Below, in pieces: positions 9,090 through 29,271 of a stretch of 32,000 nt of DNA. Position 1 is the stretch's first letter; each line of letters opens with the position of its first letter. The stretch comes from Nitrosomonas europaea (lineage in GTDB: Bacteria; Pseudomonadota; Gammaproteobacteria; Burkholderiales; Nitrosomonadaceae): the NCBI RefSeq assembly GCF_900167395.1, contig NZ_FUWK01000014.1:18458-50457 (forward strand). Reading direction: 5' to 3'. The position numbers were made by a program, and so were the translations under genes. Under the pieces are notes generated by a model. It did not search any database. It had not been told where the DNA came from and saw only the letters and a list, made by a program, of their open reading frames with translations.

Positions 9090-9590
9090 ATGACAATTAC
9101 CTATTCCGGCGATGAACTGTTTCTTCAACTGCGCGGTGATCTGCTGAATTATCTGTGTCGCAAGCTGAGCAAAGATGAAGCAGCCGATATACTTCAGGAA
9201 ATCTATCTGCGATGGCGCAGGCAGGATATCTCGAGTATCGAAAACCCGCGCGCCTTCCTGTTTACCGTTGCGCTCAATCTGATCCGGGATCAGGCACGCC
9301 GGCAGGCGCATGTGCAAACCTACGCCAATACCATGCAACACCTGTTTCAGGATAAACCTGCGGACTATGATCTGGCACAGCATTGTGACGAACGCAGACA
9401 AATAGAATATCTGCAGCAGGCTCTGGATCAGTTGCCGGAAAATGTACGCCATGCTTTTCTTCTTTTTCGCCTCGATGGTTTGACATTTGCTGAAATCGCA
9501 CTGCAGATGGGTATTTCAAGCAAATCCGTGGCACGCTACATTCAGCACGCCAGCGAGCACTGCCTGACTGCTCTTGCGCAATATCGGTGA
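9090..9590 (+). CDS. ECF sigma factor, FecI group (sigma 1)
   Basis: Region 2 (EAADILQEIYLRWRR, ENPRAFLFTVALNLIRDQARR) and region 4 HTH (LTFAEIALQMGISSKSVARYIQHA). It is followed by a FecR-type gene. Confidence 0.9.
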   Translation: MTITYSGDELFLQLRGDLLNYLCRKLSKDEAADILQEIYLRWRRQDISSIENPRAFLFTVALNLIRDQARRQAHVQTYANTMQHLFQDKPADYDLAQHCDERRQIEYLQQALDQLPENVRHAFLLFRLDGLTFAEIALQMGISSKSVARYIQHASEHCLTALAQYR

Positions 9591-9658: not shown

Positions 9659-10642
9659 ATGCACCTATCAAACAGTCCGAATTCGCATGACCCTGATGCA
9701 CAGGCACGATTCTGGTTCGCACGGCAGCAGGGTCAGACTTTGTCGGAAGCGGAACAGCAGCAACTGGCTGAATGGCTGGCTGCCAATCCACTGCATCAGG
9801 ATGCCTGGCGGCGTGTGGAGGAGGACTGGCTGGCAATCGACCGTTATCGTCATGCACTGAATGATGAGTTGAAAAAGGCACGCCGTAACCGTCCCGGACA
9901 GCATAAAGCGGCCTTTCAACTTAAACGACGGGCGGCAGCTGCAGCTCTGTTGGTGGCAGTATGCATTCCTGTGCTGTATCAGGGCATGACCGGAACGACA
10001 ACATACTGGAACACCTTGAAAGGTGAACAGCAGCAGATCACCCTGGCCGGTGGCTCCACTCTGAATCTGGATACTGCAACGCGTATCACTGTCACGCAGA
10101 ACTGGTTCACACATCATGTCCAGCTGCATGAAGGTGAAATCTATCTGGAGACGGCATCATCCGACTGGCATACTTTGAGAGTGAGTGCGGAGCATTACGA
10201 AATTCGTGATATCGGCACACGTTTTTCGGTCAGGTATATCCCTGATCAGTTCATGGTCGAAGTTGCTGAAGGTACGGTTGAAGTAAAAAAACAGGGACAG
10301 CTGGTGTTACTGCAAGCGGGTGAAGTACTTTCCATCATTACCGGCAGTAATGAATGGAGGCTGGCGGCACTGCCGGCAGGGGATATCGCTCACTGGCGCA
10401 AAGGTCTGCTGGTATTCAATGCACACCGGCTGCATGACGTATTACACGAAATCGCACGCTATCATACGGTTCAATTCGATCTGGCCGATTCCGCCATTGG
10501 CGAGATACAGGTCAGCGGTCGTTTCAAGCTCGATGAGCTCGATACCAATCTGCAAATCATCGCCGATACACTGAAAATCAATATCGAACACCCGGCACCC
10601 GGCCGTTACAGGCTGGGTGCCTTGCGGCAATCAACACGCTGA
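9659..10642 (+). CDS. FecR-family transmembrane anti-sigma factor (anti-sigma 1)
   Basis: N-terminal anti-sigma segment (ARFWFARQQ), one TM helix (AAAALLVAVCIPVLY) and a periplasmic FecR domain with IRDIGTRFSV. That Gly-Thr matches the position of the autoproteolytic GT described for FoxR/FecR-type proteins. Confidence 0.9.
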   Translation: MHLSNSPNSHDPDAQARFWFARQQGQTLSEAEQQQLAEWLAANPLHQDAWRRVEEDWLAIDRYRHALNDELKKARRNRPGQHKAAFQLKRRAAAAALLVAVCIPVLYQGMTGTTTYWNTLKGEQQQITLAGGSTLNLDTATRITVTQNWFTHHVQLHEGEIYLETASSDWHTLRVSAEHYEIRDIGTRFSVRYIPDQFMVEVAEGTVEVKKQGQLVLLQAGEVLSIITGSNEWRLAALPAGDIAHWRKGLLVFNAHRLHDVLHEIARYHTVQFDLADSAIGEIQVSGRFKLDELDTNLQIIADTLKINIEHPAPGRYRLGALRQSTR

Positions 10643-10753: not shown

Positions 10754-11377
10754 TTATTTGAAATGTCTGATACGGGTATATTCTCCTTCAGTTTTGAGCG
10801 TAATCGTCATCGGGGTGGATGTCCGGTTTCGCCAGAACCACCCATGATCACCGTCAAAAGCTGCTTCTAAGACGCCTTCCCGCATTTGTCCGGTCCCCTT
10901 GCTGTAACTATGGTAGTTGATCTTCAGTTCTTTTGAATCTCCATGCTGATCAAAAACAGCTGTTCCACCATTAGTCCGCCAAACGTAGTGAACTTTACTT
11001 CCCTTTGTCATCGTCACCTTGATCTCAGTACCTTGATTTGGGGCAAGCGTTATCTTTTTTTCATGACTCATCTCTGATTTTGGAGCAAGCGGCAGAGATT
11101 CTGTTACTGCTGTTACCGCTTCAGATAATTCGATCTGCAGGCTGGCAGCCGCATTCGCCCGATCTGCAGTTGCTTCTTCTGTCAGAGAAACTTTGATTTC
11201 TCCCATTCTTTTCAGACCGGTGATTTCACCGAAACCGGTTGGATCGATACCGTATTCCGCAGGCATTACAACAGTGACGAGTAAAAATATCGCAGTCAGT
11301 AATGCAATGACGGTAGATCTGATCAATCTGCCGGTTGAGGGTATCTCATGAGTTGAAGGTATGTTTGCGTTATACAT
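10754..11377 (-). CDS. membrane-anchored periplasmic protein of unknown function (N-terminal TM anchor plus His/Trp-containing beta-rich C-terminal domain)
   Basis: 207-aa ORF with a TM anchor (LIRSTVIALLTAIFLLVTVVMPA). The C-terminal ~110 aa are beta-like (KVHYVWRTNGGTAVFDQHGD, NYHSYSKG, FDGDHGWFWRN). It begins 20 nt downstream of the HupE-type gene on the same strand. I recognise no characterised family. Confidence 0.7.
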   Translation of the reverse strand: MYNANIPSTHEIPSTGRLIRSTVIALLTAIFLLVTVVMPAEYGIDPTGFGEITGLKRMGEIKVSLTEEATADRANAAASLQIELSEAVTAVTESLPLAPKSEMSHEKKITLAPNQGTEIKVTMTKGSKVHYVWRTNGGTAVFDQHGDSKELKINYHSYSKGTGQMREGVLEAAFDGDHGWFWRNRTSTPMTITLKTEGEYTRIRHFK

Positions 11378-11397
11378 AATTTTTCCTGTAAGAATAA

Positions 11398-12081
11398 TCA
11401 GATAGTGCTGAATAAAATGAAATGGCCTGTAATCTGGTATCCCATCAAGAGGAAGCCGAGCATCATCATGAATGTATTGGTGTTATAGGCGTGGTTCATG
11501 AATTTTCCGGATTTCCTCCAATATGCAATTGCGATCAGAATGGCCGCCAGTGCCAGAATTTGTCCGATCTCGACACCGATATTGAAGAAAATGAGATTTG
11601 GCAGGAGTCCATCAGCCGGTAATTCGTACTCCAGGATCTTGGTGGCAAGGCCAAAACCATGAAACAGTCCGAAGATAAAAGTGGCAATCTTTGTATCAGG
11701 CTGAAAACCAAACCAGCGCTGAAAGGCTCCCATATTGTCCAGAGATTTGTAAACGATGGAAAATCCGATGATTGCATCGATCAGATAAGGGCTGACAGCA
11801 ACCTCAAACAGAACACCGGATAACAGCGTAATGACATGGCCGGCAGCGAACAGCGTGACATAAATACAGATGTCCTTCAGTCGATACAAAAAGAAAATCA
11901 CACCCAGCAGAAAAAGCAGATGATCGTGACCGGTCATCATATGTTTTGCGCCGAGATAAATAAAAGGTATCGGCAATATGCCGGTACTTTCCAGGATATA
12001 GCCCTTGTCACCCTCGGTGACACCATGCGCAGTAACATCAGAAGTAACTCCAAAAATTACTGCGATAAAAAGAGCCTTCAT
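11398..12081 (-). CDS. HupE/UreJ-family (HupE_UreJ_2-like) integral membrane metal permease
   Basis: Signal-like N-terminus (MKALFIAVIFGVTSDVTAHG) if started at ATG 12081; the ORF track extends to 12153. It has the GAKHMMTGHDHLLFLLGV motif (H-x3-G-x-DH-LL) followed by about 5 further TM helices. Confidence 0.8.
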   Translation of the reverse strand: MKALFIAVIFGVTSDVTAHGVTEGDKGYILESTGILPIPFIYLGAKHMMTGHDHLLFLLGVIFFLYRLKDICIYVTLFAAGHVITLLSGVLFEVAVSPYLIDAIIGFSIVYKSLDNMGAFQRWFGFQPDTKIATFIFGLFHGFGLATKILEYELPADGLLPNLIFFNIGVEIGQILALAAILIAIAYWRKSGKFMNHAYNTNTFMMMLGFLLMGYQITGHFILFSTI

Positions 12082-12364
12082 ACATAAACAAGTCAACACG
12101 CCATGCTCCACAGGAGATGACATTTTCATTTCAGTCATGCAAATTGTCTCCATGAATTACAGTCCGTGGATCCGGAATTTCCGTAAACCGCGGCGATGGA
12201 ACGGGTGCTGCAACAGTACTGGTTCTGTCAGGAATATAGCCTTTCCCCTGTCAAGTATCCGAGACAATGATTACCAGATGAAACCGGTAATACTGAGACA
12301 GGACATACAACAGACTGAAATCGCACTGGCGCTGACTGAGCCGTCAGCACACCCGATTGTGAAA

Positions 12365-12763
12365 TTAGTACCTGATTTCTAAAGAAGCGGTATTTCGAGG
12401 AGGGCGGAACGGTAAATCAAGAGTTGATTCAGGAATGCCGGCAGGAAAGAATCCGGGGATATTTTCCTTTCCCGGGAGAGATGGAATAATCGGTAGCAAG
12501 ATAAAATAGAAAGGCTGAAACTGCCCGGCTGCATGCAGGATTAAATGATCTGTGAAATCCGGATCGTTATCGAGGGTTTCGTCATGATGCTGATGAAACC
12601 CTGTATCTGCTGCGTGATCATGGTACGAATGATGATGATCGAATCTATGCGATACATGGAAATGATCAAGCTCATGTTTGAAGATTTCCTGATGGAATGA
12701 CCAGGCAACTGCATTTGTCAATAAACTGACAAACAGTATCAGAAGAATAAAATTGTCGGTCAT
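12365..12763 (-). CDS. His-rich secreted or membrane-anchored protein, unknown function (probable metal-binding)
   Basis: Preferred start is ATG 12763 (MTDNFILLILFVSLLTNAVAW), with AAGAGA 5 nt upstream. Alternative starts are ATG 12778 or the ORF-track GTG 12874. There are 15 His in a 55-residue stretch (FHQEIFKHELDHFHVSHRFDHHHSYHDHAADTGFHQHHDE...HLILH). It is the first gene downstream of operator site B. Confidence 0.65.
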   Translation of the reverse strand: MTDNFILLILFVSLLTNAVAWSFHQEIFKHELDHFHVSHRFDHHHSYHDHAADTGFHQHHDETLDNDPDFTDHLILHAAGQFQPFYFILLPIIPSLPGKENIPGFFPAGIPESTLDLPFRPPRNTASLEIRY

Positions 12764-13141
12764 ATATCTCTTGCCCATGGCAGCAAAACTGTATACACAC
12801 CCGATCAGATCGTCAACTTTTCTGATCTGATAAAAGGTGGTTTGATGATTGCACTGATTTTTCCTGAAAATCACACTGAAAACAGCTGACTAAATCCTGA
12901 CGACAGTGGACGAAAAGTGACATAAAAACAATGGCAGGAGAAGTAGAAAAAAAACGCCTGTCGATTTATAAAAAGACTATAAAAGGACAGGCAGAAGTAG
13001 AGGAGGGAAGCAATTACTTACCGGTGAGCACACTTTCATCCAGACAAGATCCGAAAGAAAAACCTGCATTCTTTCTCATGAATCTATATTCATATTGCAG
13101 ATATGAATCCGGATATCAGAGGTGGTACAGATAATGAGCCA

Positions 13142-13552: not shown

Positions 13553-13579
13553 TTGTCCACTTTTTCCGACCCGTGCGTC
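13553..13579 (+). promoter_or_regulatory. candidate ECF (FecI-type) promoter of receptor 1
   Basis: TTGTCC (13553-13558), 17 nt, then CGTC (13576-13579), 55 nt before the ATG. Similar elements precede the other three receptor genes. Confidence 0.35.
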
Positions 13580-13630: not shown

Positions 13631-15994
13631 ATGCAGCACTATCTGTCAATCATGATTTTAATTCTGCTGTTGCCGGTTGCTCATGCCCAGACCGGGGCAG
13701 CAGGAAGCACTTCAACGGCGATCAACTGGCATCTGTCAGCCCAGCCTTTGAGCACAGCATTGCAGCAACTGGCTGAACACAGCAATACCAGTATCATGTT
13801 TGATGCAGCAACTGTCCGTAACATTCAGGCTCCATCCCTCCGTGGCCAGTACACGCCGCTGGAAGCATTGAAAAAACTATTGTCCGGCAGCGGCCTGCAG
13901 GCCGAGGAAACGGTACCCGGCAGGTTCAGTATCGTACAGGCAGCAACAACCGTACAGCAGTTACCGGAAATGACTGTCACCGGCGCTCCTGATCCGGATT
14001 CACCGTACAGCACGCAATATAAAGTACCTGATACGACGACGGCGACCAGGACGAAAACGCCGATCATGGAAACACCGATGTCGATACAGGTGGTGCCTAA
14101 ATCAGTGATGAACGATCAGCAGGCGATTACGCTGGAGCAGTCGCTAAGAAACGTCAGTGGCGTTTTTCACGGGATTGGTCAAGGTGGGGTGGAATTTCTT
14201 AATATCCGTGGTTTTCAGACTTGGGATTACTATCGAAACGGTGTGCGGTTTACATCTGCACAGACACAAACTGGTTACCGAGAAGTGGCCAATCTGGAAA
14301 GGATAGAAGTCCTCAAGGGGCCAGCTTCGATTCTGTATGGTCGGATCGAGCCGGGGGGAATGGTCAATCTGGTGCCGAAAACACCACAAGCCACGCCGTA
14401 TTATTCATTACAGCAACAATTCGGTTCATATAATCTGTTTCGTACCACGCTGGATGCTACGGGTGGATTGAATCAGGATAGTTCATTGCTGTACCGTCTG
14501 AATTTTGCCTATGAAGATAAGGGTTCGTTTCGCGAGTTTGTTGATAATCATCATTTCTTCGTGGCACCAGTGTTGCAATGGCAAATATCTGACCGTACCC
14601 AGATTACCGCTGAGATGGAATATAAGACCGGCAAGTACTCAGTGGACTATGGTTTTCCGGCGATTGGCAACCGACCAGCCAACTTGCCGATCAATCGTCA
14701 ACTGGGCGAATCATTTAATAGTGCTAAATTTGATGAAATTACAGCCGGATTCCACTGGTCTCATGCATTCAATGACAACTGGGAGATAAAACACCGTTTC
14801 TATCTGCAACGAACTGACGAAGGCGATGATGTTGTGATACCGTCGGCATTACGAACAGATAACCGTACTCTCGATCGTTTTTATGCGGGATTCAGAAACG
14901 CTAAAGTAGATACCTATACGACAAATATGGACTTGACGGGCCATGTTGAAACATTCGGGACCCAACATACGCTGCTGATGGGTGGCGATTATTACAATTT
15001 CAGAAATCGCCGCCTCATGATTTCGAATTTTGATTTTCCGTCCATTGATATTTTTAATCCGGTGCATAGTGGCACAGCTATTCGGGATTCGGCCAATGAT
15101 AGTCCTTATGACAGAAGAGATGACTGGTTTGGTCTGTATTTCCAGGATCAGATAAAATTACCCTATAACGTGCATGTGCTGGCAGGTTTCCGCTACGACA
15201 ATGCCGAGATAAAAAACATATCCGGAAGGAAAAGCGCGCAGGATAAAATTTCACCGCGTGTTGGCGTGTTATGGCAACCGATTCCAGCTCTTTCATTTTA
15301 CGGCAATTATATCGAGAATTTCGGCGCTCCAAATTTAGGCACGAGTGGACTCGACGGGCAGCCACTTCCAGCTGAAACAGCACAACAATGGGAAGCCGGG
15401 ATAAAAACAGAATTTTTTGACGGACGTTTTAGTGCAACACTTGCCTGGTTCCAGCTCACCAAGCAAAACATTGCAACCCCTCACCCTGATCCACAACTGG
15501 CGCTGCAGAGAATTTCAGTATTGACCGGAGAGGCGCGCAATCAAGGCGTTGAATTCGATATTACCGGTGAATTGTTACCTGGCTGGCAGTTGATTGCCAA
15601 TTATACTTATATCGATTCGGAAATAACCAAAACCAATAACAATATGCAGTTGGGTAACCGCTTCCCGAATGTACCCGAACACGCCGGTAATATCTGGACC
15701 ACTTATGCCTTTCAGAATGAAACCTTGCGTGGGTTGAAAATTGGTGGCGGTGTGACGCTCAGAGGAAAACGTGAAGGCAATCCGGAAAATGATTTTCAGA
15801 TGCCTGGTTACGCAGTTTTTAACCTGATGACGAGTTATGCAATGAAAATGGGTAAAACCCGGGTGACGGCACAGTTGAATGTCAATAATCTGTTTAATGA
15901 GGAATATTTCCCCGGTAGTGGTGGATTCAATCGTGCGCGTATCTTTGTAGGTACACCACGTGTATTTCTGGGCTCGCTCCGGGTCGAGTATTAA
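13631..15994 (+). CDS. TonB-dependent siderophore receptor with N-terminal STN signalling domain (transducer 1)
   Basis: Signal peptide (MQHYLSIMILILLLPVAHAQ) and an STN-like segment (LSTALQQLAEHSNTSIMFDAATV...LLSGSGLQAEE). TonB-box-like LPEMTVTG, plug motifs (TPMSIQVVPK, IEVLKGPASILYGRIEPGG) and a long barrel ending in LRVEY. Confidence 0.93.
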   Translation: MQHYLSIMILILLLPVAHAQTGAAGSTSTAINWHLSAQPLSTALQQLAEHSNTSIMFDAATVRNIQAPSLRGQYTPLEALKKLLSGSGLQAEETVPGRFSIVQAATTVQQLPEMTVTGAPDPDSPYSTQYKVPDTTTATRTKTPIMETPMSIQVVPKSVMNDQQAITLEQSLRNVSGVFHGIGQGGVEFLNIRGFQTWDYYRNGVRFTSAQTQTGYREVANLERIEVLKGPASILYGRIEPGGMVNLVPKTPQATPYYSLQQQFGSYNLFRTTLDATGGLNQDSSLLYRLNFAYEDKGSFREFVDNHHFFVAPVLQWQISDRTQITAEMEYKTGKYSVDYGFPAIGNRPANLPINRQLGESFNSAKFDEITAGFHWSHAFNDNWEIKHRFYLQRTDEGDDVVIPSALRTDNRTLDRFYAGFRNAKVDTYTTNMDLTGHVETFGTQHTLLMGGDYYNFRNRRLMISNFDFPSIDIFNPVHSGTAIRDSANDSPYDRRDDWFGLYFQDQIKLPYNVHVLAGFRYDNAEIKNISGRKSAQDKISPRVGVLWQPIPALSFYGNYIENFGAPNLGTSGLDGQPLPAETAQQWEAGIKTEFFDGRFSATLAWFQLTKQNIATPHPDPQLALQRISVLTGEARNQGVEFDITGELLPGWQLIANYTYIDSEITKTNNNMQLGNRFPNVPEHAGNIWTTYAFQNETLRGLKIGGGVTLRGKREGNPENDFQMPGYAVFNLMTSYAMKMGKTRVTAQLNVNNLFNEEYFPGSGGFNRARIFVGTPRVFLGSLRVEY
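13961..15994 (+). repeat. High-identity paralogous segment, copy 1 (plug plus barrel of receptor 1), matches 18226-20259
   Basis: Both copies are 2034 nt. They share long runs of identical nucleotides, for example gacgaaaacgccgatcatggaaacaccgatgtcgatacaggtggtgcctaaatcagt. Similarity starts at ttaccggaaatgactgtcacc and ends at the stop codon. Confidence 0.9.
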
Positions 15995-16170
15995 CCAGAA
16001 GATTGTGGCGGATCACCTTACAGGTATCCGCCAGGACTACACATCTGATGACAGGTTGAATTTCGATACATCAGCCGCTTTCGGGTGATTCTCATGGCAG
16101 CCTCATGCTTTACATGGCAATCCGGCAACGGATGGAGGTTATGATGAAAGCATGCCAGCAGGCCTTTCTC

Positions 16171-16216
16171 TGCGACAATTTGTCGCATTCCACCCTTATG
16201 GCAAACACAGCATAAT
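16171..16216 (+). promoter_or_regulatory. Palindromic operator plus promoter, site C (upstream of ECF sigma 2)
   Basis: Perfect 8-1-8 palindrome TGCGACAATTTGTCGCA (16171-16187), TTCCAC, a 17-nt spacer and CATAAT (16211-16216), 34 nt before ATG 16251. Confidence 0.65.
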
Positions 16217-16250
16217 CATGCTCTTTTTAGCCCATTATGCCTTGCTGTCC

Positions 16251-16751
16251 ATGACCACCAGTTGTACCAATGATGAACTGTTCCTCCAGTTACGTAATGA
16301 CTTGCTGAATTTTCTGTATCGCAAGGTGGGGAGAGATGAAGCAGCTGATATGGTCCAGGAAGTTTATCTGCGCTGGCGTAAACAGGATGTTTCATCCATC
16401 GAAAATCCTCGCGCGTTTTTGTTTACGGTTGCGCTCAACCTGATTCGTGACAGCTCACGCCAGCAAATTCGTGTGGACAAACATACCACCGAAATACAGA
16501 ACTTCTTTGAAATCGGCAATGCTGCGGACGATCCGGCACGACGTTATGACGGCCAAAGACAACTGGCAAGTTTGCTGCACGCATTGAATCAGCTACCGGA
16601 ACCGGTAGGCCATGCATTTCTCCTGTTTCGTTACGATGGTATGACTCATGCACAAATTGCCAAACAACTGGGCGTTTCCAGCAAAACAGTGGAACGCTAT
16701 ATTCAGCGTGCAGGTGAACATTGTCTGGCTATACTGGCAGAGTATCGGTGA
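16251..16751 (+). CDS. ECF sigma factor, FecI group (sigma 2)
   Basis: Start moved from ORF-track 16152 to ATG 16251. The extension would cover the operator and the -10 box. MTTSCTNDELFLQLRNDLL aligns residue-for-residue with sigma 1 (MTITYSGDELFLQLRGDLL), and both proteins are then 166 aa. Confidence 0.9.
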   Translation: MTTSCTNDELFLQLRNDLLNFLYRKVGRDEAADMVQEVYLRWRKQDVSSIENPRAFLFTVALNLIRDSSRQQIRVDKHTTEIQNFFEIGNAADDPARRYDGQRQLASLLHALNQLPEPVGHAFLLFRYDGMTHAQIAKQLGVSSKTVERYIQRAGEHCLAILAEYR

Positions 16752-16817
16752 TAATCATCTTTTGTCGATCATGCCTGTCCTGAATGTCCTGTGGTTAAAA
16801 GCGCAGGAGAAAATTGC

Positions 16818-17768
16818 ATGCCCGAATCTTTTCATGATGATATCGATGCAACGGCTCGTCACTGGTTTATCCGCCAGCAAGGCCGTGCACTTTCCGCAGA
16901 GGAGCAGCGCGCCCTGACGGACTGGCTTGCAGCCAGTCCGGATCACCGTACAGCCTGGACACGTGCAGAAGAGGACTGGCAATCGCTGGATCGTTTTCGT
17001 ACGGATCTGTCCAGCGAACTGAACAAGGCACGCCATTATCGTCCTCGTCATCACTCTTCTCGCTACCTCAAATGGGCCGCTGCAGCACTGGTGCTGATAG
17101 CACTTCCCATACTCTACCGCGCATCGACCGGCATCCCCCGGCATTGGCAAACGGCAACGGGTGAGCGGCAGCACGTCACACTTGCCGATGGCAGCCAACT
17201 GAGTCTGGATACAGCAACGCGCGTAACCATCACTCAAAGCTGGTTCCAACGCCTTATTCAACTGCAGGAGGGAGAAATTTATCTGGAGGTGGCGCCCGAC
17301 TGGCGTCCGCTGCAGGTAACAGCTGCCGATACACGAATTCGTGATATTGGTACCCGTTTCTCCGTACGCGATACGCCAGAAAAATTTACCGTACAAGTGG
17401 AAGAAGGCGCCGTGGAAATCATCCGCCGGGATAAACATCTCGTACTGCATGCCGGAGAAACCGTGACCCGCCATCCGGCAACCGATCGATGGCAACTGGC
17501 TACCGTGCAGGGAGACATTGCAAACTGGCGTCAGGGCATACTGGTATTCGACCAGCATCGATTGCCGGAAGTGCTGCAGGAACTGGCACGTTATCATGCC
17601 GTTCGATTCGATCTGGCCGACCCTGCCCTGGGAAGGAAACAGATCAGCGGGCGTTTCCGGCTTGACGAGCTCGATACCACCTTGCGCATCATTGCTGAAA
17701 CGCTGAATCTGAACATCGAACACCCAACACCCGACCGGTACCTGTTGAGCGCAGCGCAGAAACAGTAA
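16818..17768 (+). CDS. FecR-family anti-sigma factor (anti-sigma 2)
   Basis: ATG 16818 follows an AGGAGA RBS at 16805-16810; the ORF track uses GTG 16791. It has ARHWFIRQQ, a TM helix (AAAALVLIALPILY) and IRDIGTRFSV. It is a paralogue of anti-sigma 1. Confidence 0.9.
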   Translation: MPESFHDDIDATARHWFIRQQGRALSAEEQRALTDWLAASPDHRTAWTRAEEDWQSLDRFRTDLSSELNKARHYRPRHHSSRYLKWAAAALVLIALPILYRASTGIPRHWQTATGERQHVTLADGSQLSLDTATRVTITQSWFQRLIQLQEGEIYLEVAPDWRPLQVTAADTRIRDIGTRFSVRDTPEKFTVQVEEGAVEIIRRDKHLVLHAGETVTRHPATDRWQLATVQGDIANWRQGILVFDQHRLPEVLQELARYHAVRFDLADPALGRKQISGRFRLDELDTTLRIIAETLNLNIEHPTPDRYLLSAAQKQ

Positions 17769-17834
17769 ACGAAGCAGCAGTCGCCGGACACACCTCGTTC
17801 ACTTTCCGGCACCATCATTAAAAATCTCTTCTGA

Positions 17835-17862
17835 CTGACGGTTTACTGCAATCTGGTTCGTC
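17835..17862 (+). promoter_or_regulatory. candidate ECF (FecI-type) promoter of receptor 2
   Basis: CTGACG (17835-17840), 18 nt, then CGTC (17859-17862), 52 nt before the ATG. The CGTCCTATGTAAG stretch resembles CGTCCTGTAAG upstream of receptor 1. Confidence 0.3.
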
Positions 17863-17910
17863 CTATGTAAGGAAGTTCCAATTAAGAACATTCTTACTCA
17901 GGGAGAAACT

Positions 17911-20259
17911 ATGCTTCGTTCAGGCCTTTTCTTGGCTGTCGTCATGCTCGCCAGCCCCATCGTGCAGGCACAAATATCCGCTACACAGCAACAGCCAGCA
18001 TTGCCGCTTGCTGCAGCTTTGCAACAACTGGCTGTCCGGCACAATCTCAGTATCGTATTCGATGCAGAAATCGTGAAAGATAAACAAGCTTCACCGTTAT
18101 CCGAGAATCTTTCCATCCGGGAAGCACTCGATACGCTGCTGAACGGCAGCGGCCTGCAGGCCAAAGAAATCGCACCGGGCCGTTACAGTATCGTAAAGGC
18201 GACAACAGGAGCAATGCAGCAGACATTACCGGAAATGACTGTCACCGGCGCCTCTGACCCGGATTCGCCTTACAGTACGCAGTATAAAGTACCCGATACG
18301 ACGACAGCGACCAGGACGAAAACGCCGATCATGGAAACACCGATGTCGATACAGGTGGTGCCTAAATCAGTCATGAATGATCAGCAGGCGATCACGCTGG
18401 AGCAGTCGCTAAGCAACGTCAGTGGTGTTTTTCCCGGACTTGGATTCAACGGGGTCGAGACTTTTAATCTCCGCGGTTTTAATACCTGGGATTATTACCG
18501 TAACGGTGTACGGTTTCAGTCCGCACTATCACAGACCGGTAACCGGGAAGTGGCCAATCTGGAGAGAATTGAAGTATTGAAGGGGCCGGCATCGATTCTG
18601 TTCGGTCGGATCGAGCCTGGGGGAATGATCAATCTGGTGCCGAAAACACCGCAAGCTACACCGTATTATTCACTACAGCAACAATTCGGCTCATATAACC
18701 TGTTTCGTACCACATTGGACGCCACCAGCAGCCTGAACCAAGATAACTCATTGCTGTACCGCCTGAACTTTGCCTATGACAATGAGGGCTCATTCCGGGA
18801 GTTTGTGAATAGTCATCATTTCTTCGTTGCACCGGTATTGCAATGGCGTATTTCCGACCGTACCCAGATCACTGCTGAAATGGAATATAAAACAGGGAAA
18901 TATGCGCATGATTACGGTTTTCCTGCGATCGGCAATCGCCCGGCCAACTTGCCGGTCAATCGTCAACTGGGCGAATCATTTAATAGTGCCAAATTTGATG
19001 AAATTACAGCCGGATTCCACTGGTCGCACGCATTCAATGATAATTGGGAGATAAAACACCGCTTCTATCTGCAGCACACCGATGAAGACGATAATGTTGC
19101 CCTGCCACTGGAATTACGCGCTGACAACCGCACACTGGACCGGTTTTTTGCCGGATTCAGAAACAACAAAATAGAAACGTATACTACCAATGTAGATTTG
19201 ACCGGCCATATCGATACCTGGGGTATCAAACATACGTTGTTGATGGGGGGTGATTACTATAATTTTAGAAATCACGGCCTCATGATTGACAACTTTAATT
19301 TTCCGTCGATTGATATTTTCAATCCGGCACATAGTGGCGTGGCTGTGCGCGATCCTGCGGATGACATCCCCTATGACACAAAAGAAGACTGGTTTGGTCT
19401 GTATTTCCAGGACCAGATAAAACTGCCTTATAACGTGCATGTGCTGGCAGGTTTTCGCTACGACAATGCCGAGATAAAAGACAACATATCCGGGAGGGAA
19501 AGCGCGCAGGATAGAATTTCACCGCGTGTTGGCGTGTTATGGCAGCCTATTCCAGCCCTTTCGTTTTATGGCAATTATGTCGAGAATTTCGGCGCTCCAA
19601 ATTTATATGGAAGCGGATTGGACGGACAGCCACTTCCAGCCGAAACGGCCCAGCAATGGGAAGCCGGCGTCAAAACAGAATTCTTTGATGGGCGTCTCAG
19701 CGCAACGCTTGCCTGGTTCCAGCTCACCAAACAAAACATTGCAACCCTCCACCCTGATCCACAACTGGCGCTGCAGAGAATTTCAGTATTGACCGGAGAG
19801 GCGCGTAATGAAGGTATAGAACTGGATATTACCGGCGAGCTGTTGCCTGGCTGGCAGGTTATCGCTAACTACGCTTATATCAATTCAGAAGTTACCAAAA
19901 CCAATGACAATACGTTGGGCAATCGCTTTCCGAATGTACCCGAACACGCCGGAAATATCTGGACTACTTATGCCTTTCAGAATGAAACCTTACGTGGATT
20001 GAAAGTTGGCGGGGGCGTAACGCTCAGAGGCAAGCGTGAAGGCAATTTGGAGAACGATTATCAAATGCCCGGTTACGCTGTATTCAACCTGATGACCAGC
20101 TACGGCATGAAGGTGGGCAAAACCCGGGTGACTGCACAGTTGAATGTCAACAATCTCTTCAATGAGGAATATTTCCCCAGCAGTGGTGGATTTGGCCGCA
20201 CACGTATTGCTGTAGGTACGCCACGTGTATTCCTGGGATCGCTCCGGGTTGAGTATTAA
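17911..20259 (+). CDS. TonB-dependent siderophore receptor with STN signalling domain (transducer 2)
   Basis: Signal peptide (MLRSGLFLAVVMLASPIVQAQ), an STN-like segment, LPEMTVTG, then plug and barrel. The GGGAG RBS matches the one before receptor 1. Confidence 0.93.
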   Translation: MLRSGLFLAVVMLASPIVQAQISATQQQPALPLAAALQQLAVRHNLSIVFDAEIVKDKQASPLSENLSIREALDTLLNGSGLQAKEIAPGRYSIVKATTGAMQQTLPEMTVTGASDPDSPYSTQYKVPDTTTATRTKTPIMETPMSIQVVPKSVMNDQQAITLEQSLSNVSGVFPGLGFNGVETFNLRGFNTWDYYRNGVRFQSALSQTGNREVANLERIEVLKGPASILFGRIEPGGMINLVPKTPQATPYYSLQQQFGSYNLFRTTLDATSSLNQDNSLLYRLNFAYDNEGSFREFVNSHHFFVAPVLQWRISDRTQITAEMEYKTGKYAHDYGFPAIGNRPANLPVNRQLGESFNSAKFDEITAGFHWSHAFNDNWEIKHRFYLQHTDEDDNVALPLELRADNRTLDRFFAGFRNNKIETYTTNVDLTGHIDTWGIKHTLLMGGDYYNFRNHGLMIDNFNFPSIDIFNPAHSGVAVRDPADDIPYDTKEDWFGLYFQDQIKLPYNVHVLAGFRYDNAEIKDNISGRESAQDRISPRVGVLWQPIPALSFYGNYVENFGAPNLYGSGLDGQPLPAETAQQWEAGVKTEFFDGRLSATLAWFQLTKQNIATLHPDPQLALQRISVLTGEARNEGIELDITGELLPGWQVIANYAYINSEVTKTNDNTLGNRFPNVPEHAGNIWTTYAFQNETLRGLKVGGGVTLRGKREGNLENDYQMPGYAVFNLMTSYGMKVGKTRVTAQLNVNNLFNEEYFPSSGGFGRTRIAVGTPRVFLGSLRVEY
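18226..20259 (+). repeat. High-identity paralogous segment, copy 2 (plug plus barrel of receptor 2), matches 13961-15994
   Basis: See copy 1. The lengths are equal because of compensating 1-codon indels (IKNISGRK vs IKDNISGRE; NNNMQLGN vs NDNTLGN). Confidence 0.9.
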
Positions 20260-20261
20260 CC

Positions 20262-21494
20262 ATGTCTTCCGAGTCAGCGCATCAACATGCTGCAGGGGTG
20301 GATGAAGAGCGCGGTACATTACCGCGGCGTTCGTGGCGCCAGCTCTGGCTGAGCATCCACCTTTATCTGGGGTTGTTCATCGGTGCGCTGCTGGTCATTC
20401 TGGGGCTTACCGGCAGCATCGCGGTGTTCTGGGCCGAGATCGATGAGTGGTTGAATCCGGAGCTGCTGACTGTCACGGTGCCTGAGCAGAAAAACCTGGC
20501 ACCAGGCGCACCTGCTTATCAATCACTGGATGAGATCATTCGTGTGGCCAGACAGGCGGCCGCTCCGGATAGCAGAATTACAACCGTTTACGGTGCACGC
20601 AATAGCGAAGCGGTCTATGCCGTTTATGCCAGCCAGCCATCCAGCGCCTGGCAGCGAATCTTTGTAGATCCCTATCGCGCGCAGGTAACCGGGGTACGCA
20701 GCTATGGCGCAAATGAGTGGATACCCAACTACTTCATGGATGTCATCTTCCAGCTCCATTTCAGTCTGTTGCTGGGTATGAACGGGCAAACGCTGATGGC
20801 TGTCTGCGCACTGCTGTTGCTGGTATCCCTGATCACCGGGTTGATCGTCTGGTGGCCAACATCGGGGCAATGGCGCAAGGCGTTGACCATCAAGCGCGGT
20901 GCCGGCCCGGTGCGTTTCAACTTTGATCTGCACAAAACGCTTTCGCTTTACCTCTTTCCGGTATTAGGTGCGGTGCTGCTGTCCGGGGTGTTCATGAACC
21001 TCAACGAGCCGTTCGTGTGGGTGACTCAACTGTTCTCACCTGCAACCCGGCAACCACAACACACACTCACATCAATCCCTATTACGGGTATACCCTCGAT
21101 CGGGGCTGAGCACGCATGGGCCATTGCCACCGAACACTACCCGGACGGTAAGTTTGGCGGCATGTTCATGCCCGGGAATGCTGAAGGCGTCTATATCGTG
21201 ACCCAGAAGCATGTGCCGAAGTTGAGTGCGTTCTGGTCGGAGCGGCAAATCGCGATCGATCAGTACAGCGGCGAGATACTGGACGTGCGTGCGCCGGATG
21301 CGCGCCGCAGTGCGGGGGAAACCTTTCTGGAATGGCAATGGCCGCTGCACTCGGGCCAGGCGTTCGGCTGGCCCGGACGCATCCTCATCTTCCTGTGCGG
21401 ACTGGCCTGCCCGGTCATTTACGCCACAGGCGTCATCCGCTGGTTGCAGAAGCGGCGGGGAAAGGGGAGGAGCCCCCGGCGTCCAATCCGGTGA
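20262..21494 (+). CDS. PepSY-associated TM-helix protein (PiuB/FoxB-like)
   Basis: The ATG lies 2 nt after the receptor 2 stop. It has the RRSWRQLWLSIHLYLGLFIGALLVILGLTGS N-terminal motif, further TM helices and a C-terminal WPLHSGQAFGWPGRILIFLCGLACPVIYATGVIRW. Confidence 0.88.
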   Translation: MSSESAHQHAAGVDEERGTLPRRSWRQLWLSIHLYLGLFIGALLVILGLTGSIAVFWAEIDEWLNPELLTVTVPEQKNLAPGAPAYQSLDEIIRVARQAAAPDSRITTVYGARNSEAVYAVYASQPSSAWQRIFVDPYRAQVTGVRSYGANEWIPNYFMDVIFQLHFSLLLGMNGQTLMAVCALLLLVSLITGLIVWWPTSGQWRKALTIKRGAGPVRFNFDLHKTLSLYLFPVLGAVLLSGVFMNLNEPFVWVTQLFSPATRQPQHTLTSIPITGIPSIGAEHAWAIATEHYPDGKFGGMFMPGNAEGVYIVTQKHVPKLSAFWSERQIAIDQYSGEILDVRAPDARRSAGETFLEWQWPLHSGQAFGWPGRILIFLCGLACPVIYATGVIRWLQKRRGKGRSPRRPIR

Positions 21495-21842: not shown

Positions 21843-21874
21843 ATGTGTTACAACGTAATTCTTGTTTAACACAT
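21843..21874 (+). promoter_or_regulatory. inverted repeat upstream of the antitoxin gene (possible autoregulatory operator)
   Basis: ATGTGTTA (21843-21850) and TAACACAT (21867-21874) are 8-bp arms separated by 16 nt. They end at the GGAGGA RBS of the RHH antitoxin gene. Confidence 0.3.
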
Positions 21875-21887
21875 GGAGGATGTGCAG

Positions 21888-23037: not shown

Positions 23038-23119
23038 TCAGTACTCAACATTTTATGCTGGCTGGTATCATCCTGGTTACCATCCAGGAAAATGCCGCAG
23101 ACATAAGGTGATCATCAGG

Positions 23120-23165
23120 TGCGACATTATGTCGCATTTCAAACAGTTTTTCTGTCCCGCATAAT
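23120..23165 (+). promoter_or_regulatory. Palindromic operator plus promoter, site D (upstream of ECF sigma 3)
   Basis: Perfect palindrome TGCGACATTATGTCGCA (23120-23136), TTTCAA, a 17-nt spacer and CATAAT (23160-23165), 43 nt before ATG 23209. Confidence 0.65.
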
Positions 23166-23208
23166 TCCCCTGCATCGGGCATATAGCCGCACATCGCCAC
23201 TATCTACC

Positions 23209-23712
23209 ATGAATCCCAGCGTAATTCTTGCCAACCTTTACCTGCGCCATTTCAGCGAGTTACGTGCTTTCCTGTTCAGGCATACGGGTTGCAGAGAAAT
23301 TGCGGCAGAGCTGACCCAGGAAACCTTTATCCGCATTATGGGTTACCAGACTGATACATCGATACAGAACGCGCGTGCCTTGCTGTACCGTATCGCGGGT
23401 AATCTGGCGATCGATCACCATCGTACCTGTGTGAAATTTCCAGAAAGCGTTTCTATCGATGATCTTCCGCAACATGAACTGCCCGCGACTGAATTGACCG
23501 ACCCCGCTCGGCTGGTAGCTGCACGCCAGCTACTGGAAAAACTGTGTATCGCGATTGATGCACTACCGCCACAATGTCATCGTGCTTTCGTACTGCATAA
23601 ATTTGACGGTTACTCACATGCGGAAATCGCCGAAAAACTGGGAATCACCCGCAATGCCGTCGAAAAACTGTTGATTCGCGCACTCATCCGGTTACGCCAG
23701 GTGCTTGTGTAA
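23209..23712 (+). CDS. ECF sigma factor, FecI group (sigma 3)
   Basis: Start moved from ORF-track GTG 23119, which lies over the operator, to ATG 23209 (MNPSVILANLY). Region 2 (AAELTQETFIRIM, ARALLYRIAGNLAIDHHR) and region 4 HTH (YSHAEIAEKLGITRNAVEKLLIRA). Confidence 0.9.
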   Translation: MNPSVILANLYLRHFSELRAFLFRHTGCREIAAELTQETFIRIMGYQTDTSIQNARALLYRIAGNLAIDHHRTCVKFPESVSIDDLPQHELPATELTDPARLVAARQLLEKLCIAIDALPPQCHRAFVLHKFDGYSHAEIAEKLGITRNAVEKLLIRALIRLRQVLV

Positions 23713-24641
23713 TGGAGCAGGATCAACAGGCAGGGCACCCCTCTGAAGAAAACGCATTAACTGAACAGGCAGCCGCCTGGTTTTTGCGTATGCAGCAAAG
23801 CGATACCAATGATGTCGAGCAAAAAGCATTTGAAGCCTGGCTTGCAGAAAATGAAGCACATCGCACCGAATATCAGCAGTATGTCCAGCTCTGGCAGACC
23901 CTTGACCACCTGGAGCAGAAACCCCGGAAAAAATCCCGTTCAACGGTTACATGGATCGTTACATTGGCGATTCTGTTCAGCTCCCTGCACTGGCTTACCC
24001 GCCATGAAGAAATGATCACGACTGCAATCGGAGAGCATCAGCAGATCATTCTGGCTGATGGTACGACGATCGATATCAATACTGATTCGACACTGCGGCT
24101 GGCATTGTACGGATTCACCCGCAAAGTAACACTGGAACGCGGTGAAGCATTATTCAGGATCGGCGATGAGCGCCTCCGGTCTTTCGAAGTGCATGCAGGT
24201 AACGGTATCCTGCGCGATATCGGTACTGAATTTAACGTTATCAAAGAAGAAGGTAACGTTACTGTTGCGGTACTTGAAGGCGCAGTCGAGGTCGGTATCG
24301 ATCATCAGAACGATACTGTCCGTTTGCTGCATGGTGGAGAGCAGCTTACTTATTCAGCGTATGATTTATCAGAAATTTCCTCGACAGATAAAGAAACGGT
24401 CACTGCCTGGCGTAAAAGCAGGCTGATTTTCCGTGAGACACCGCTGGAAGAAGTCATCCGGCAAATCAATCGTTACCACTCGCGCCCTGTCAGACTGGGG
24501 GATCCACAACTGAATACACTGAGAGTCAGCGGGGAATTCAACTCGGCTGATCGTGCAGGGTTGGTCCAGGCGCTGATCACGCTGCTTCCGCTGCGCGCCA
24601 GTGAGCTGGATAGCGTTACTCTCCTGACTTATGAGAAATAA
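23712..24641 (+). CDS. FecR-family anti-sigma factor (anti-sigma 3)
   Basis: The ATG overlaps the sigma stop (TAATG). It has AAAWFLRMQ, a TM helix (VTWIVTLAILFSSLHWL) and LRDIGTEFNV. Confidence 0.9.
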   Translation: MEQDQQAGHPSEENALTEQAAAWFLRMQQSDTNDVEQKAFEAWLAENEAHRTEYQQYVQLWQTLDHLEQKPRKKSRSTVTWIVTLAILFSSLHWLTRHEEMITTAIGEHQQIILADGTTIDINTDSTLRLALYGFTRKVTLERGEALFRIGDERLRSFEVHAGNGILRDIGTEFNVIKEEGNVTVAVLEGAVEVGIDHQNDTVRLLHGGEQLTYSAYDLSEISSTDKETVTAWRKSRLIFRETPLEEVIRQINRYHSRPVRLGDPQLNTLRVSGEFNSADRAGLVQALITLLPLRASELDSVTLLTYEK

Positions 24642-24766
24642 AACAAAACGTATTCTGCTGATCTCGCAGGGATGAAGCCATCCAAAATGAGGAACGGATC
24701 AGCCCGTATAAAAATGCAAACGAACTGATCCGAAAAACAGCCTGGAAGCATAAGAATTTTTTCTGC

Positions 24767-24794
24767 ATGTCAGGTGCTCCTTTTTATTTTCGTC
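24767..24794 (+). promoter_or_regulatory. candidate ECF (FecI-type) promoter of receptor 3
   Basis: ATGTCA (24767-24772), 18 nt, then CGTC (24791-24794), 67 nt before the ATG. Confidence 0.3.
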
Positions 24795-24857
24795 TTATCA
24801 GGTAAGCCAGTCCGCTGGCATATACCGATCAAAGATAAAAATATTCAGGGATGAATC

Positions 24858-27203: not shown

Positions 27204-27370
27204 CGATCTGGAAGGCTGGCAGGATTTTGAATCTGTGAGCGAGATGATATCCCATCGATAGGGACGTTTTATCCATCTTCATTACATCACCTGGTGATAC
27301 AGCCATCATTCGCGCGGCGCAGCCAACTGCCGATGATGGCTGTTCTTCATCGCTCATCCGATATCATCGC

Positions 27371-27416
27371 TGCGACAATTTGTCGCATTCTCATTCCTCA
27401 GTTTTATAGTGATAAT
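27371..27416 (+). promoter_or_regulatory. Palindromic operator plus promoter, site E (upstream of ECF sigma 4)
   Basis: Perfect palindrome TGCGACAATTTGTCGCA (27371-27387), sharing the 21-mer CTGCGACAATTTGTCGCATTC with site C. Then TTCTCA, a 17-nt spacer and GATAAT (27411-27416), 48 nt before ATG 27465. Confidence 0.65.
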
Positions 27417-27464
27417 ACCGTACCGATCAACGGTAATTATTCCTGTATTTTCTTGCTGTCATAC

Positions 27465-27992
27465 ATGTTTCCACTGGATTCTCCTCTTCTGGCAGACCTT
27501 TACAAAAAATATCGATCACGCCTCATAAGCAGAATTGCACGTTTGACTGGCTGCCGTGAAACTGCTGCCGATCTGGCGCAGGATGCCTACATGCGGTTGC
27601 TCGACCAGACCGGTGTGGCATGTCCTTCCAATCCTGCGGCTTATCTGTTCCGGATTGGACGTAATCTGGCTATCGATCATCAACGCAGACCGGATTTTCG
27701 GCAGCATGACGAAACTTCGTTCGAGGAAGAGTTACCTTCTTCTTTTTCCGGGCTGGATCAGCAGGCGGTCTATCGCCAGGAATGTGAACAGTTATGGACG
27801 GCAATCATGGAATTGCCTCGTCCGGTCAGTCGCGCATTGGTACTCAGTGTAATCGAAGGGGTCAGCCAGGCTGCCATTGCTGAAGAGCTTGGCGTAACCG
27901 AACGTACCGTACGCCGGTATATCAGCAAGGGGATGGCACATTGCCAGCGGCGTCTGCGTAATCCGTTACCACCAGCACGTTACGACCGCTGA
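27465..27992 (+). CDS. ECF sigma factor, FecI group (sigma 4)
   Basis: Start moved from ORF-track 27294 to ATG 27465 (MFPLDSPLLADLY), downstream of the operator and the -10 box. Region 2 (AADLAQDAYMRLL, PAAYLFRIGRNLAIDHQRR) and region 4 HTH (VSQAAIAEELGVTERTVRRYISKG). Confidence 0.88.
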   Translation: MFPLDSPLLADLYKKYRSRLISRIARLTGCRETAADLAQDAYMRLLDQTGVACPSNPAAYLFRIGRNLAIDHQRRPDFRQHDETSFEEELPSSFSGLDQQAVYRQECEQLWTAIMELPRPVSRALVLSVIEGVSQAAIAEELGVTERTVRRYISKGMAHCQRRLRNPLPPARYDR

Positions 27993-28136
27993 GTGTCGGC
28001 AGCTGGCTTCCGCGAACAATTCTCCGAATCTGCGGTTTCCAGGATAAATTGACATTGAAACTGGCTCGGGAATATATCCCGCAGCGCTTTCATGTTAACC
28101 TCGCCGCATGTTTTTCTGCTGACTGATTCATATCAG

Positions 28137-29123: not shown

Positions 29124-29186
29124 ATCACGCCATCCCGTGAAACATCGACAACCACGGAATTCTGTCACGATCAGCTTCTGAAATAA

Positions 29187-29213
29187 TTGTCCGGTTTATT
29201 CCGCTATTTCGTC
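29187..29213 (+). promoter_or_regulatory. candidate ECF (FecI-type) promoter of receptor 4
   Basis: TTGTCC (29187-29192), 17 nt, then CGTC (29210-29213), 62 nt before the ATG. The hexamer and spacing are the same as upstream of receptor 1. Confidence 0.35.
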
Positions 29214-29271
29214 ATAAACGATAGCTAACCCAAAAAGCAGAAAAATCGTTTAACGAAATAAAGGGAACCTC

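Follow-up and report, generated by a model that had tools for sequence, protein, structure and literature searches.

The receptor loci of the window

A 32,000-nucleotide (nt) stretch of the genome of Nitrosomonas europaea ATCC 19718 (contig NZ_FUWK01000014.1, positions 18,458 to 50,457; here called the window) has four triads on its plus strand. Each consists of a gene for an extracytoplasmic function (ECF) sigma factor, one for an anti-sigma factor of the FecR type and one for a TonB-dependent transducer. We are concerned with the receptors of triads 1 and 2 (R1 and R2), which are alike over their plug and barrel and unlike over their signalling domain, and with what takes place at the boundary between the two parts. 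The sigma factor and FecR genes lie directly upstream of R2 and of the receptors of triads 3 and 4 (R3 and R4); for R1 they are found 3 kb upstream, beyond an island of three genes. Within the window, the sigma factor, FecR protein and signalling domain of triad 1 are most closely related to those of triad 2, and vice versa (61%, 55% and 45%, respectively, against approximately 30% to triads 3 and 4). Coordinates are collected in Table 1.

STN, Plug and TonB_dep_Rec_b-barrel domains (Pfam PF07660, PF07715 and PF00593) are found in both R1 and R2, the STN signalling domain scoring 33.6 bits in R1 and 39.6 bits in R2 against a cut-off of 28.4. Both proteins belong to the siderophore-receptor subfamily TIGR01783 (415.1 and 395.1 bits; cut-off 223.5); the NCBIfam equivalogs for FhuA (289 against a cut-off of 803) and FoxA (229 against 1300) were not reached. 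The sigma factor of triad 1 (sigma1) matched the NCBIfam FecI-type models with scores below their cut-offs. On this domain content, R1 and R2 are predicted to be TonB-dependent transducers for ferric siderophores. The parts (ECF sigma factor, FecR-type anti-sigma factor, and a receptor with STN domain, TonB box, plug and 22-strand barrel) are throughout those of FecI–FecR–FecA of E. coli and of FoxI–FoxR–FoxA and FpvI/PvdS–FpvR–FpvA of Pseudomonas, and FoxA and FpvA are among the best sequence matches. The genes are ordinary members of this well-known system, from which they differ in that R1 is split from its presumed regulators by the 3-kb island and, as described below, in that barrels are exchanged under fixed regulators. 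At locus 2 the order sigma factor, FecR, receptor, PepSY_TM protein is one that we take to resemble foxI–foxR–foxA–foxB of P. aeruginosa, in which the PepSY_TM protein is a siderophore reductase. There is no PepSY_TM gene at locus 1; a second one lies at 1476–2933.

An AlphaFold2 model of receptor 1 (predicted local distance difference test, pLDDT, 85) has a folded STN domain of alpha/beta type at residues 31–103, a disordered, low-confidence linker at residues 106–137, and a plug within a barrel of 22 strands joined by alternating long and short connections. The best fold matches are FoxA, FhuA and FpvA; the target-normalised TM-score is 0.84–0.88 to FhuA, FoxA and the enantio-pyochelin receptor, with approximately 25–28% identity to solved structures. 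The linker holds the motif LPEMTVTG, the position of which fits the place expected of a TonB box (PMC11637429), and it is treated here as a putative TonB box.

A preliminary description of this DNA, made by eye from the sequence, had presented R1 and R2 as mosaic paralogues with a sharp boundary at the TonB box, and every figure in it is borne out by computation. A 21-nt motif, TTACCGGAAATGACTGTCACC, occurs at exactly 13961 and 18226, from which it is 2034 nt to the stop codon in both genes, although this equal length masks two compensating indels of one codon. Across the 676 codons that can be aligned from LPEMTVTG onward, residue identity is 87% (85–90% had been estimated), and the long shared nucleotide runs include exact matches of 65 nt (14042/18307) and 56 nt (15482/19750), the longest found. 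Upstream of the motif only 45–46% of residues are identical over the 102 aligned N-terminal codons, under half, as had been judged, and the STN-coding DNA is 55% identical; sigma1 and sigma2 are 61% and FecR1 and FecR2 55% identical, where 55–60% had been given for the regulators. Similarity between R1 and R2 halts, as described, at the stop, ending at TAACCA, 4 nt beyond it, and the PepSY_TM gene does begin 2 nt after the stop of receptor 2. Only the phrase 'nearly identical' was too strong, because the plug–barrel DNA is 84% identical with a synonymous divergence (dS) of 0.76.

The step at the junction is not due to chance: the non-synonymous divergence (dN) rises from 0.07 to 0.55 and the proportion of synonymous differences (pS) from 0.48 to 0.63. 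For the STN part as a whole, dN is approximately 0.55–0.56, dS 1.39 and pS 0.63; the corresponding values are 0.27, 1.57 and 0.66 for the sigma factors and 0.35, 2.0 and 0.70 for the FecR proteins. With R3 and R4 as outgroups, the barrel pair is disproportionately close, its dN ratio being 0.135 against 0.33–0.6 for the other modules. Within the plug–barrel part, dS is very patchy, ranging in 30-codon windows from 0.11 to saturated. The absence of a step, or a uniform synonymous divergence, would have spoken against a mosaic; the step is present and dS is not uniform. A dS of 0.76 with so wide a range is, however, not the signature of one recent conversion.

Table 1. Features of the receptor loci (positions in the window).
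Feature	Coordinates	Strand	Basis or remark
Triad 1	sigma 9090..9590, FecR 9659..10642, R1 13631..15994	+	
sigma1, FecI-type ECF sigma factor, regulatory module 1	9090..9590	+	Pfam Sigma70_r2/r4_2/ECF
FecR1, anti-sigma factor, regulatory module 1	9659..10642	+	Pfam DUF4880, FecR and FecR_C
Three-gene low-GC island between FecR1 and receptor 1	10754..12874	-	Open reading frames; context, outside the mosaic
CGTC element, possible ECF-type -10 element	13576..13579	+	55 nt before receptor 1 ATG; pattern only
Receptor 1 signal peptide, STN signalling domain and linker (locus-specific module)	13631..13960	+	PF07660 at residues 55-102
Receptor 1 TonB box, plug and 22-strand barrel (proposed exchangeable cassette)	13961..15994	+	Plug and barrel Pfam matches
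5' junction, TonB-box motif LPEMTVTG to plug start TPIMETPMSIQVVPK	13961..14110	+	5' breakpoints fall here
Receptor 1 block closest to R2-position allele of L020	14519..15058	+	Exchange between loci and between strains
3' junction, last 42 nt of receptor 1, encoding TPRVFLGSLRVEY and stop	15953..15994	+	
Triad 2	sigma 16152..16751, FecR 16791..17768, R2 17911..20259, then PepSY_TM 20262..21494	+	
sigma2, FecI-type ECF sigma factor, regulatory module 2	16152..16751	+	Pfam
FecR2, anti-sigma factor, regulatory module 2	16791..17768	+	Pfam DUF4880, FecR and FecR_C
Receptor 2 signal peptide, STN domain and linker (locus-specific module)	17911..18225	+	PF07660 at residues 46-96
Receptor 2 TonB box, plug and barrel (proposed exchangeable cassette)	18226..20259	+	Pfam
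R1-type tract within receptor 2, candidate conversion in own genome	18240..18320, may reach ~18405	+	
PepSY_TM membrane protein gene	20262..21494	+	PF03929, PF03413; begins 2 nt past receptor 2 stop
Triad 3	23119..27203	+	
Receptor 3, third instance of the same modular break	24858..27203	+	Junction MPEVRVTG at 25170
Triad 4	27294..31671	+	

Plug–barrel divergence among close strains

Close strains were found by exact-protein look-ups; a scan of the genome collection gave no N. europaea or N. eutropha locus. The two loci compared in most detail are L019, from Nitrosomonas sp. H1_AOB3 (CP054389.1), and L020, from an assembly labelled N. europaea (WBZR01000187.1). Across 22 kb, ATCC 19718, L019 and L020 are 97–100% identical, also in the STN-coding 5' parts of the receptor genes, in the sigma factor and FecR genes, in the island and in the PepSY gene; only in the plug–barrel coding parts of receptors 1, 2 and 3 does identity fall, to 60–90%. 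At locus 1, sigma1 is 100% identical in L019 and L020 and FecR1 98–99%; at locus 2, sigma2 is 99–100% identical in L019, L020 and a further locus, L025, FecR2 is 96–99% identical, and the PepSY_TM gene 97–100% identical among strains. By comparison, identity over the plug–barrel part is 0.60–0.88 for receptor 1 and 0.77–0.92 for receptor 2 against L020, and 0.67–0.79 for receptor 3 against L019; the whole receptor 1 cassette and its positional counterpart in L020 are only 73% identical in nucleotides, despite flanks that are 98–99% identical. Four contigs in all carry the L020 allele of receptor 1, among them one of a second assembly (L021), and the gene context is the same. A metagenome scan gave one further allele of the R2 locus (L025) together with relatives that have no STN domain, and no new R1 alleles.

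The edges of the divergent segments can be placed closely. In receptor 1 against L020, dense mismatches extend from 13899 to 15952, after which the sequences are identical (the junction motif is at 13961 and the stop at 15994). In receptor 2, with its junction motif at 18226, dense mismatches begin at 18240 against both L019 and L020, and against L020 they continue to the stop at 20259, mismatches outside this segment being sparse. In receptor 3 against L019 (junction motif at 25170), few mismatches occur as far as 25182, they are dense from 25241 on, and the 3' end lies beyond the coverage of the locus. The 5' breakpoints thus fall between 62 nt before and 71 nt after the TonB-box motif, and the two resolved 3' breakpoints within the final 42 nt of the gene. 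The 5' breakpoints are within or beside the coding sequence of the modelled linker, where folding would be least likely to suffer from a recombination joint.

Synonymous sites behave in the same way. Between positional orthologues, dS is 0.025–0.11 in the STN part (0.025–0.11 for receptor 1, 0.026–0.039 for receptor 2) and 0.20–1.7 in the barrel. Between receptor 2 and its counterpart in L020 it rises from 0.039 to 0.73, approximately 19-fold within one gene, and a second pair of orthologues goes from 0.11 to 1.59. Selection on amino acids cannot yield such a jump of dS within a gene; diverged DNA has been imported. This abrupt rise of divergence, synonymous divergence included, between conserved flanks is what is expected of a hypervariable, fpvA-like receptor locus with allelic cassette replacement.

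A shared allele pool and re-assortment in the genus

The barrels of R1 and R2 are drawn from alleles that are shared between the two loci. Their dS of 0.76 is approximately that between R2 of the window and R2 of L020 (0.73), and the R1 barrel has a lower dS to the allele at the R2 position in L020 (0.53) than to the R2 of its own genome; against L019, dS is 0.32 for R1 and 0.20 for R2. In 120-nt windows, R1 at 14519–15058 is 0.86–0.93 identical to R2 of L020, as against 0.76–0.88 to R1 of L019. When R1 of the window, R1 of L019, R2 of L020 and R2 of the window are taken as a quartet, orthology is contradicted by 63 of the 144 quartet-informative barrel sites. Forty-four of these 63 join R1 of the window to R2 of L020, mostly at 14531–15130, and the discordant sites are clustered (runs test, p = 0.0002). 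A Sawyer-type test for overlong runs of matching polymorphic sites gave p = 0.0005–0.0135 in 10 of 10 pairs, a result that persists when the most divergent allele is removed. Hypermutation was considered and set aside, the extra divergence being in clustered blocks that match alleles at other loci. It is recombination, and not differing constraint alone, that makes the mosaic.

The preliminary description had offered gene conversion or domain-level recombination as the origin of the boundary. Recombination stands, on the evidence of the strain breakpoints and the incongruent blocks, but its simplest form, in which one conversion in this genome copied the whole plug–barrel part between the two receptors, is very improbable. 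Such an event would account for the sharp ends of similarity at the TonB box and the stop codon; furthermore, at 13982–14100 the two genes of the window match one another best (0.93–0.96), better than they match their own orthologues, and three sites at 13978–13984 group by genome. Grouping by genome is, however, seen in only 7 of 197 quartet-informative barrel sites, the barrel dS is high overall and runs from 0.11 to saturated, and R1 is nearer to the R2 of L020 and to the R1 of L019 than to its own R2. The orthologues in L019 being closer, there is no homogenisation of whole barrels within one genome, and conversion within the genome accounts for short tracts only, of approximately 80–190 nt. 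For such tracts the earlier suggestion is borne out: 13982–14100 in R1, matching approximately 18240–18320 in R2, looks like conversion of this kind. At 18240–18319 there are 25 sites at which the R2 of the window departs from that of L019 and agrees with R1; the other R2-type proteins (P0003–P0007) read YSTQYRVPEATTATKTQ, whereas R1 and the R2 of the window read YSTQYKVPDTTTATRTK. The mosaic is real and lies at the level of domains, and it has arisen by repeated exchange of cassettes out of a shared allele pool rather than by one conversion between R1 and R2.

The same independence of the two parts is seen across Nitrosomonas. Among 29 homologues with a barrel of the R1/R2 type (59–99% identical to R1), STN identity to R1 varies from 23 to 100% and is unrelated to barrel identity. 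Gene context shows that sigma factor, FecR and STN types move jointly, and that the barrel type varies independently of them. In locus L022 the sigma factor, FecR and STN are 88%, 85% and 81% identical to those of triad 3, whereas the identity of its barrel is 74% to R1/R2 and 42% to receptor 3; in that locus the following receptor has a barrel of 73% identity to receptor 3, under unrelated regulators. In isolate genomes of N. marina (L007 and L008), regulators of the triad-3 type (61–67%) occur with a barrel of the R1/R2 type (78–80%), and L023 has unrelated regulators (at most 40%) with a barrel 86–89% identical to R1/R2. One sigma/anti-sigma/STN circuit occurs with barrels only 42–74% identical to one another, and one barrel type is found under at least five regulator types. 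Plug–barrel cassettes re-assort, both within the population and across the genus, against stable sigma/FecR/STN modules. The metagenome loci L026–L033 have barrels 60–65% identical to R1/R2, and so nearer to them than are receptors 3 and 4 of the window (43–45%), with no STN domain and no neighbouring sigma factor or FecR; to judge from these sequences, the signalling module has been gained or lost inside this clade of barrels.

A different account dispenses with recombination: an old tandem duplication of the whole triad would have been followed by unequal constraint, with purifying selection on plug and barrel and relaxed or diversifying selection on the STN domain, sigma factor and anti-sigma factor in the interest of insulated circuits. 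An old duplication of the triad probably did occur, and underlies the regulatory modules; triads 1 and 2 are adjacent, with regulators that are mutual closest relatives in the window, and dN/dS is approximately 0.4 in the STN part against approximately 0.095 in the plug–barrel part. As a complete explanation it is nevertheless decidedly improbable. Constraint at the amino-acid level cannot reduce divergence at synonymous sites, and yet pS is lower in the barrel (0.48) than in the other modules (0.63–0.70); it gives no account of the 19-fold jump of dS in one gene between positional orthologues; and it leaves unexplained both the clustering of the incongruent sites and the joining of one regulator type to differing barrel types in other genomes. 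That mis-assembly of paralogous receptor genes in metagenome-derived genomes mimics allele replacement is scarcely credible: L020 and several of the protein matches are metagenomic, and paralogous repeats are prone to chimeric assembly, but the window matches AL954747.1, a single 2.81-Mb chromosome record, L019 is in a single 2.84-Mb record, the receptor 1 allele of L020 is found again in another assembly, the mosaic of R1 and R2 is visible from the window alone, and modules are also re-assorted in the isolate genomes of N. marina.

Other differences and elements along the window may be noted briefly. The three-gene island (G+C content 0.43–0.44) is found in all three strains and encodes a 207-amino-acid protein with no family, in the middle a HupE/UreJ_2 (HupE_UreJ_2) membrane protein, and a histidine-rich protein of 169 amino acids with no family. 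The upstream regions of R1 and R2 and the stretch that follows FecR1 have no alignable DNA in common, and so give no trace of an ancestral FecR1–R1 spacer split by the island. A CGTC element is found 52–67 nt before the ATG of all four receptor genes, that of receptor 2 at 17859, and the upstream regions of R1 and R2 both carry CGTCCT(A)TGTAAG; by its pattern the element may be an ECF -10 element. A scan for sigma-70 promoters and terminators gave counts at the level of shuffled sequence. L020 is without 89 nt (16062–16150) between the stop of receptor 1 and the listed start of sigma2, and the upstream region of sigma2 differs between strains if that start is indeed 16152; other gene callers start sigma2 later (177 amino acids in L002). 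In a gene for a resistance–nodulation–division (RND) pump (5798–8920), positions 7330–7830 are 80–85% identical to L019 and L020, which are themselves 97–99% identical there, as though ATCC 19718 alone had acquired this patch by recombination from elsewhere; a smaller divergent patch, 5530–6030, is specific to L019. At approximately 23021, beside a PIN-domain gene (22517–22933, minus strand), 388 nt of L019 and L020 are missing from the window. In those strains they encode most of a 92-amino-acid open reading frame directly upstream of the PIN gene, so the PIN toxin gene of ATCC 19718 may have lost its partner. Between the PepSY gene and triad 3, at 21873–22462, is a two-gene module of open reading frames of 100 and 96 amino acids (the latter ParE_toxin in the gene-context tables), which is also present in the related locus L022.

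Probable exchange of the barrel beneath a fixed signalling module

We consider it likely that these are receptors of two modules, one of which is repeatedly swapped by homologous recombination from a shared pool. The first module would comprise the ECF sigma factor gene, the FecR gene and the STN domain of the receptor, which together are locus-specific and nearly invariant in close strains; the second, the exchangeable cassette, would comprise TonB box, plug and 22-strand barrel. All or part of the second module would be replaced, time and again, by diverged alleles donated by other strains or, through non-allelic gene conversion, by the neighbouring paralogue. The 5' joints lie in or beside the conserved sequence that encodes the TonB box and the start of the plug, after the flexible linker, and the two 3' joints that are resolved lie where the conserved last strand and the stop codon are encoded. 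Because the barrels at both loci are samples of one old pool, R1 and R2 are 87% identical there and 45–61% identical in the STN domain, sigma factor and anti-sigma factor. The boundary between the modules, the recombination, the pool common to both loci and the common inheritance of sigma factor, FecR and STN types are seen in the sequences themselves.

In cell-surface signalling a flexible loop in which the TonB box lies connects the signalling domain to the plug, and the signalling domain binds the anti-sigma factor through the latter's C-terminal domain; ligand binding together with TonB triggers the anti-sigma factor's proteolysis (PMC11637429). By analogy with Fox and Fec, the STN domain of R1 or R2 would bind the C-terminal domain of its FecR partner, and the ligand would lead by way of anti-sigma proteolysis to release of the sigma factor (PMC11637429). 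The sigma factor, FecR and STN domain are inherited together, and we suggest that the STN domain is kept with its own anti-sigma factor by specific mutual binding and by the need to insulate many parallel circuits, whereas the barrel, having no such tie to the regulators, would be free to be exchanged. Its turnover may be driven by the supply of foreign siderophores, by phage and bacteriocin pressure on the exposed face, or by both, and the coupling of ligand binding to the STN domain would be generic enough to outlast barrel swaps.

The junction DNA has some features of interest in this context. No DNA is more conserved across the four receptor genes than the stretch 13961–14110: R1 and R4, the barrels of which are 53% identical in DNA, are 0.75–0.78 identical at the 5' junction and approximately 0.5 elsewhere. 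Exact matches of at least 17 nt between the two are confined to this stretch, with one of 20 nt at 13986 and one of 29 nt at 14057; the longer, ACGCCGATCATGGAAACACCGATGTCGAT, is exactly common to receptors 1, 2 and 4, at 14057, 18322 and 29701. A tentative and rather doubtful extension is that the DNA of the TonB box and plug start, and that of the last strand, is kept alike to serve as recombination handles, so that any barrel could be placed under any circuit. If that were true, the signal would pass from barrel to STN domain without co-adapted contacts, by the generic mechanics of TonB box and linker alone. Between distant paralogues the same codon is used for the same residue at approximately 61% of positions at the junction against 40% overall; as this is only modestly raised, dedicated handles are not claimed.

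It had been proposed that the variable patches between R1 and R2 could be surface loops. This holds for DEGDDVVIPSALRTDN (residues 397–412), which lies in the model at the tip of the strand 7/8 hairpin, in loop L4, but not for GIGQGGVEFLNIRGFQ (residues 181–196), which lies in the plug. Two variable patches are in plug loops, at residues 180–196 and 208–216, positions that would correspond to those at which plug loops of FhuA contact the ligand. The preliminary description had further taken the two receptors as likely to recognise the same or a very similar ligand; a ligand may be shared, the differences between R1 and R2 including these two plug loops. Among 28 members of the clade the outer half of the barrel is more variable than the inner half (entropy 0.75 against 0.48, p = 1e-4).

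Several points weigh against the two-module explanation. Differences between R1 and R2 themselves are more frequent on the outer side of the barrel, at 15.4% against 9.7%, but not significantly so (p = 0.066), and dN/dS is approximately 0.1 over the barrel. The breakpoint of receptor 1 against L020 lies 62 nt upstream of the TonB box, within the end of the STN coding sequence, and this STN end in L020 carries R2-type sequence from 13899, with a 6-nt insertion. Values of dS above approximately 1 are near saturation, and the ratios between modules are approximate. The comparison at the DNA level covers three genomes of the lineage, of which L020 is metagenome-assembled. Receptor 1 is 3 kb from sigma1 and FecR1, and their pairing is inferred from position and parallel divergence. 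Finally, the ligand, the signalling and the sigma dependence of R1 and R2 are predicted from the genes alone.

Recombination of receptor genes and deep allele classes are known from fpvA of Pseudomonas aeruginosa, the four types of which (I, IIa, IIb and III) are distributed across clonal backgrounds (PMC2777410). Their diversity has been attributed to diversifying selection and to bacteriocin (pyocin) pressure (PMC2777410). The receptors described here are like fpvA in that a siderophore transducer gene has deep allele classes. They differ in that the fpvA types co-vary with the linked pyoverdine synthesis genes, whereas N. europaea is reported to have multiple receptor sets of this kind and to show no evidence of siderophore production (PMC9693385), so that its barrels are not tied to a biosynthetic locus. 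They differ also in that alleles cross between two paralogous loci and break at the STN/TonB-box junction; no report of either for fpvA was found in the literature searched. The short tracts in R1 and R2 that match within the genome recall the concerted evolution of tuf genes and rRNA operons, although homogenisation is partial and old here, most of the barrel being no closer within the genome than between strains. A looser analogy is with polymorphic toxins (CdiA-CT, Rhs tips) and mosaic surface antigens, in which constant and variable parts are likewise joined at a short conserved motif and the variable parts would similarly re-assort through homologous recombination. Unlike a toxin tip, the variable part here is a whole transporter of approximately 2 kb, both paralogues are complete and presumably expressed, and no silent cassettes were seen. 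No paper describing modular exchange of barrels was found in the literature searched, and within it the clean modular boundary, the single allele pool for two paralogous loci and the genus-wide re-assortment of barrels appear to be new.

For annotation and typing, the consequence is that position is no guide to specificity: strains that are 99% identical elsewhere can carry the 'same' receptor with a barrel that is 72% identical. Fast turnover of the recognition part could allow these bacteria to track the siderophores of their neighbours or to evade phages and bacteriocins that use the receptors, as has been proposed for fpvA (PMC2777410). The receptors also amount to natural domain-swap experiments, which suggest, as far as sequences can, that the functions of the signalling domain and of the transport body can be separated, and this separability bears on how the binding of a ligand is relayed to the anti-sigma factor.

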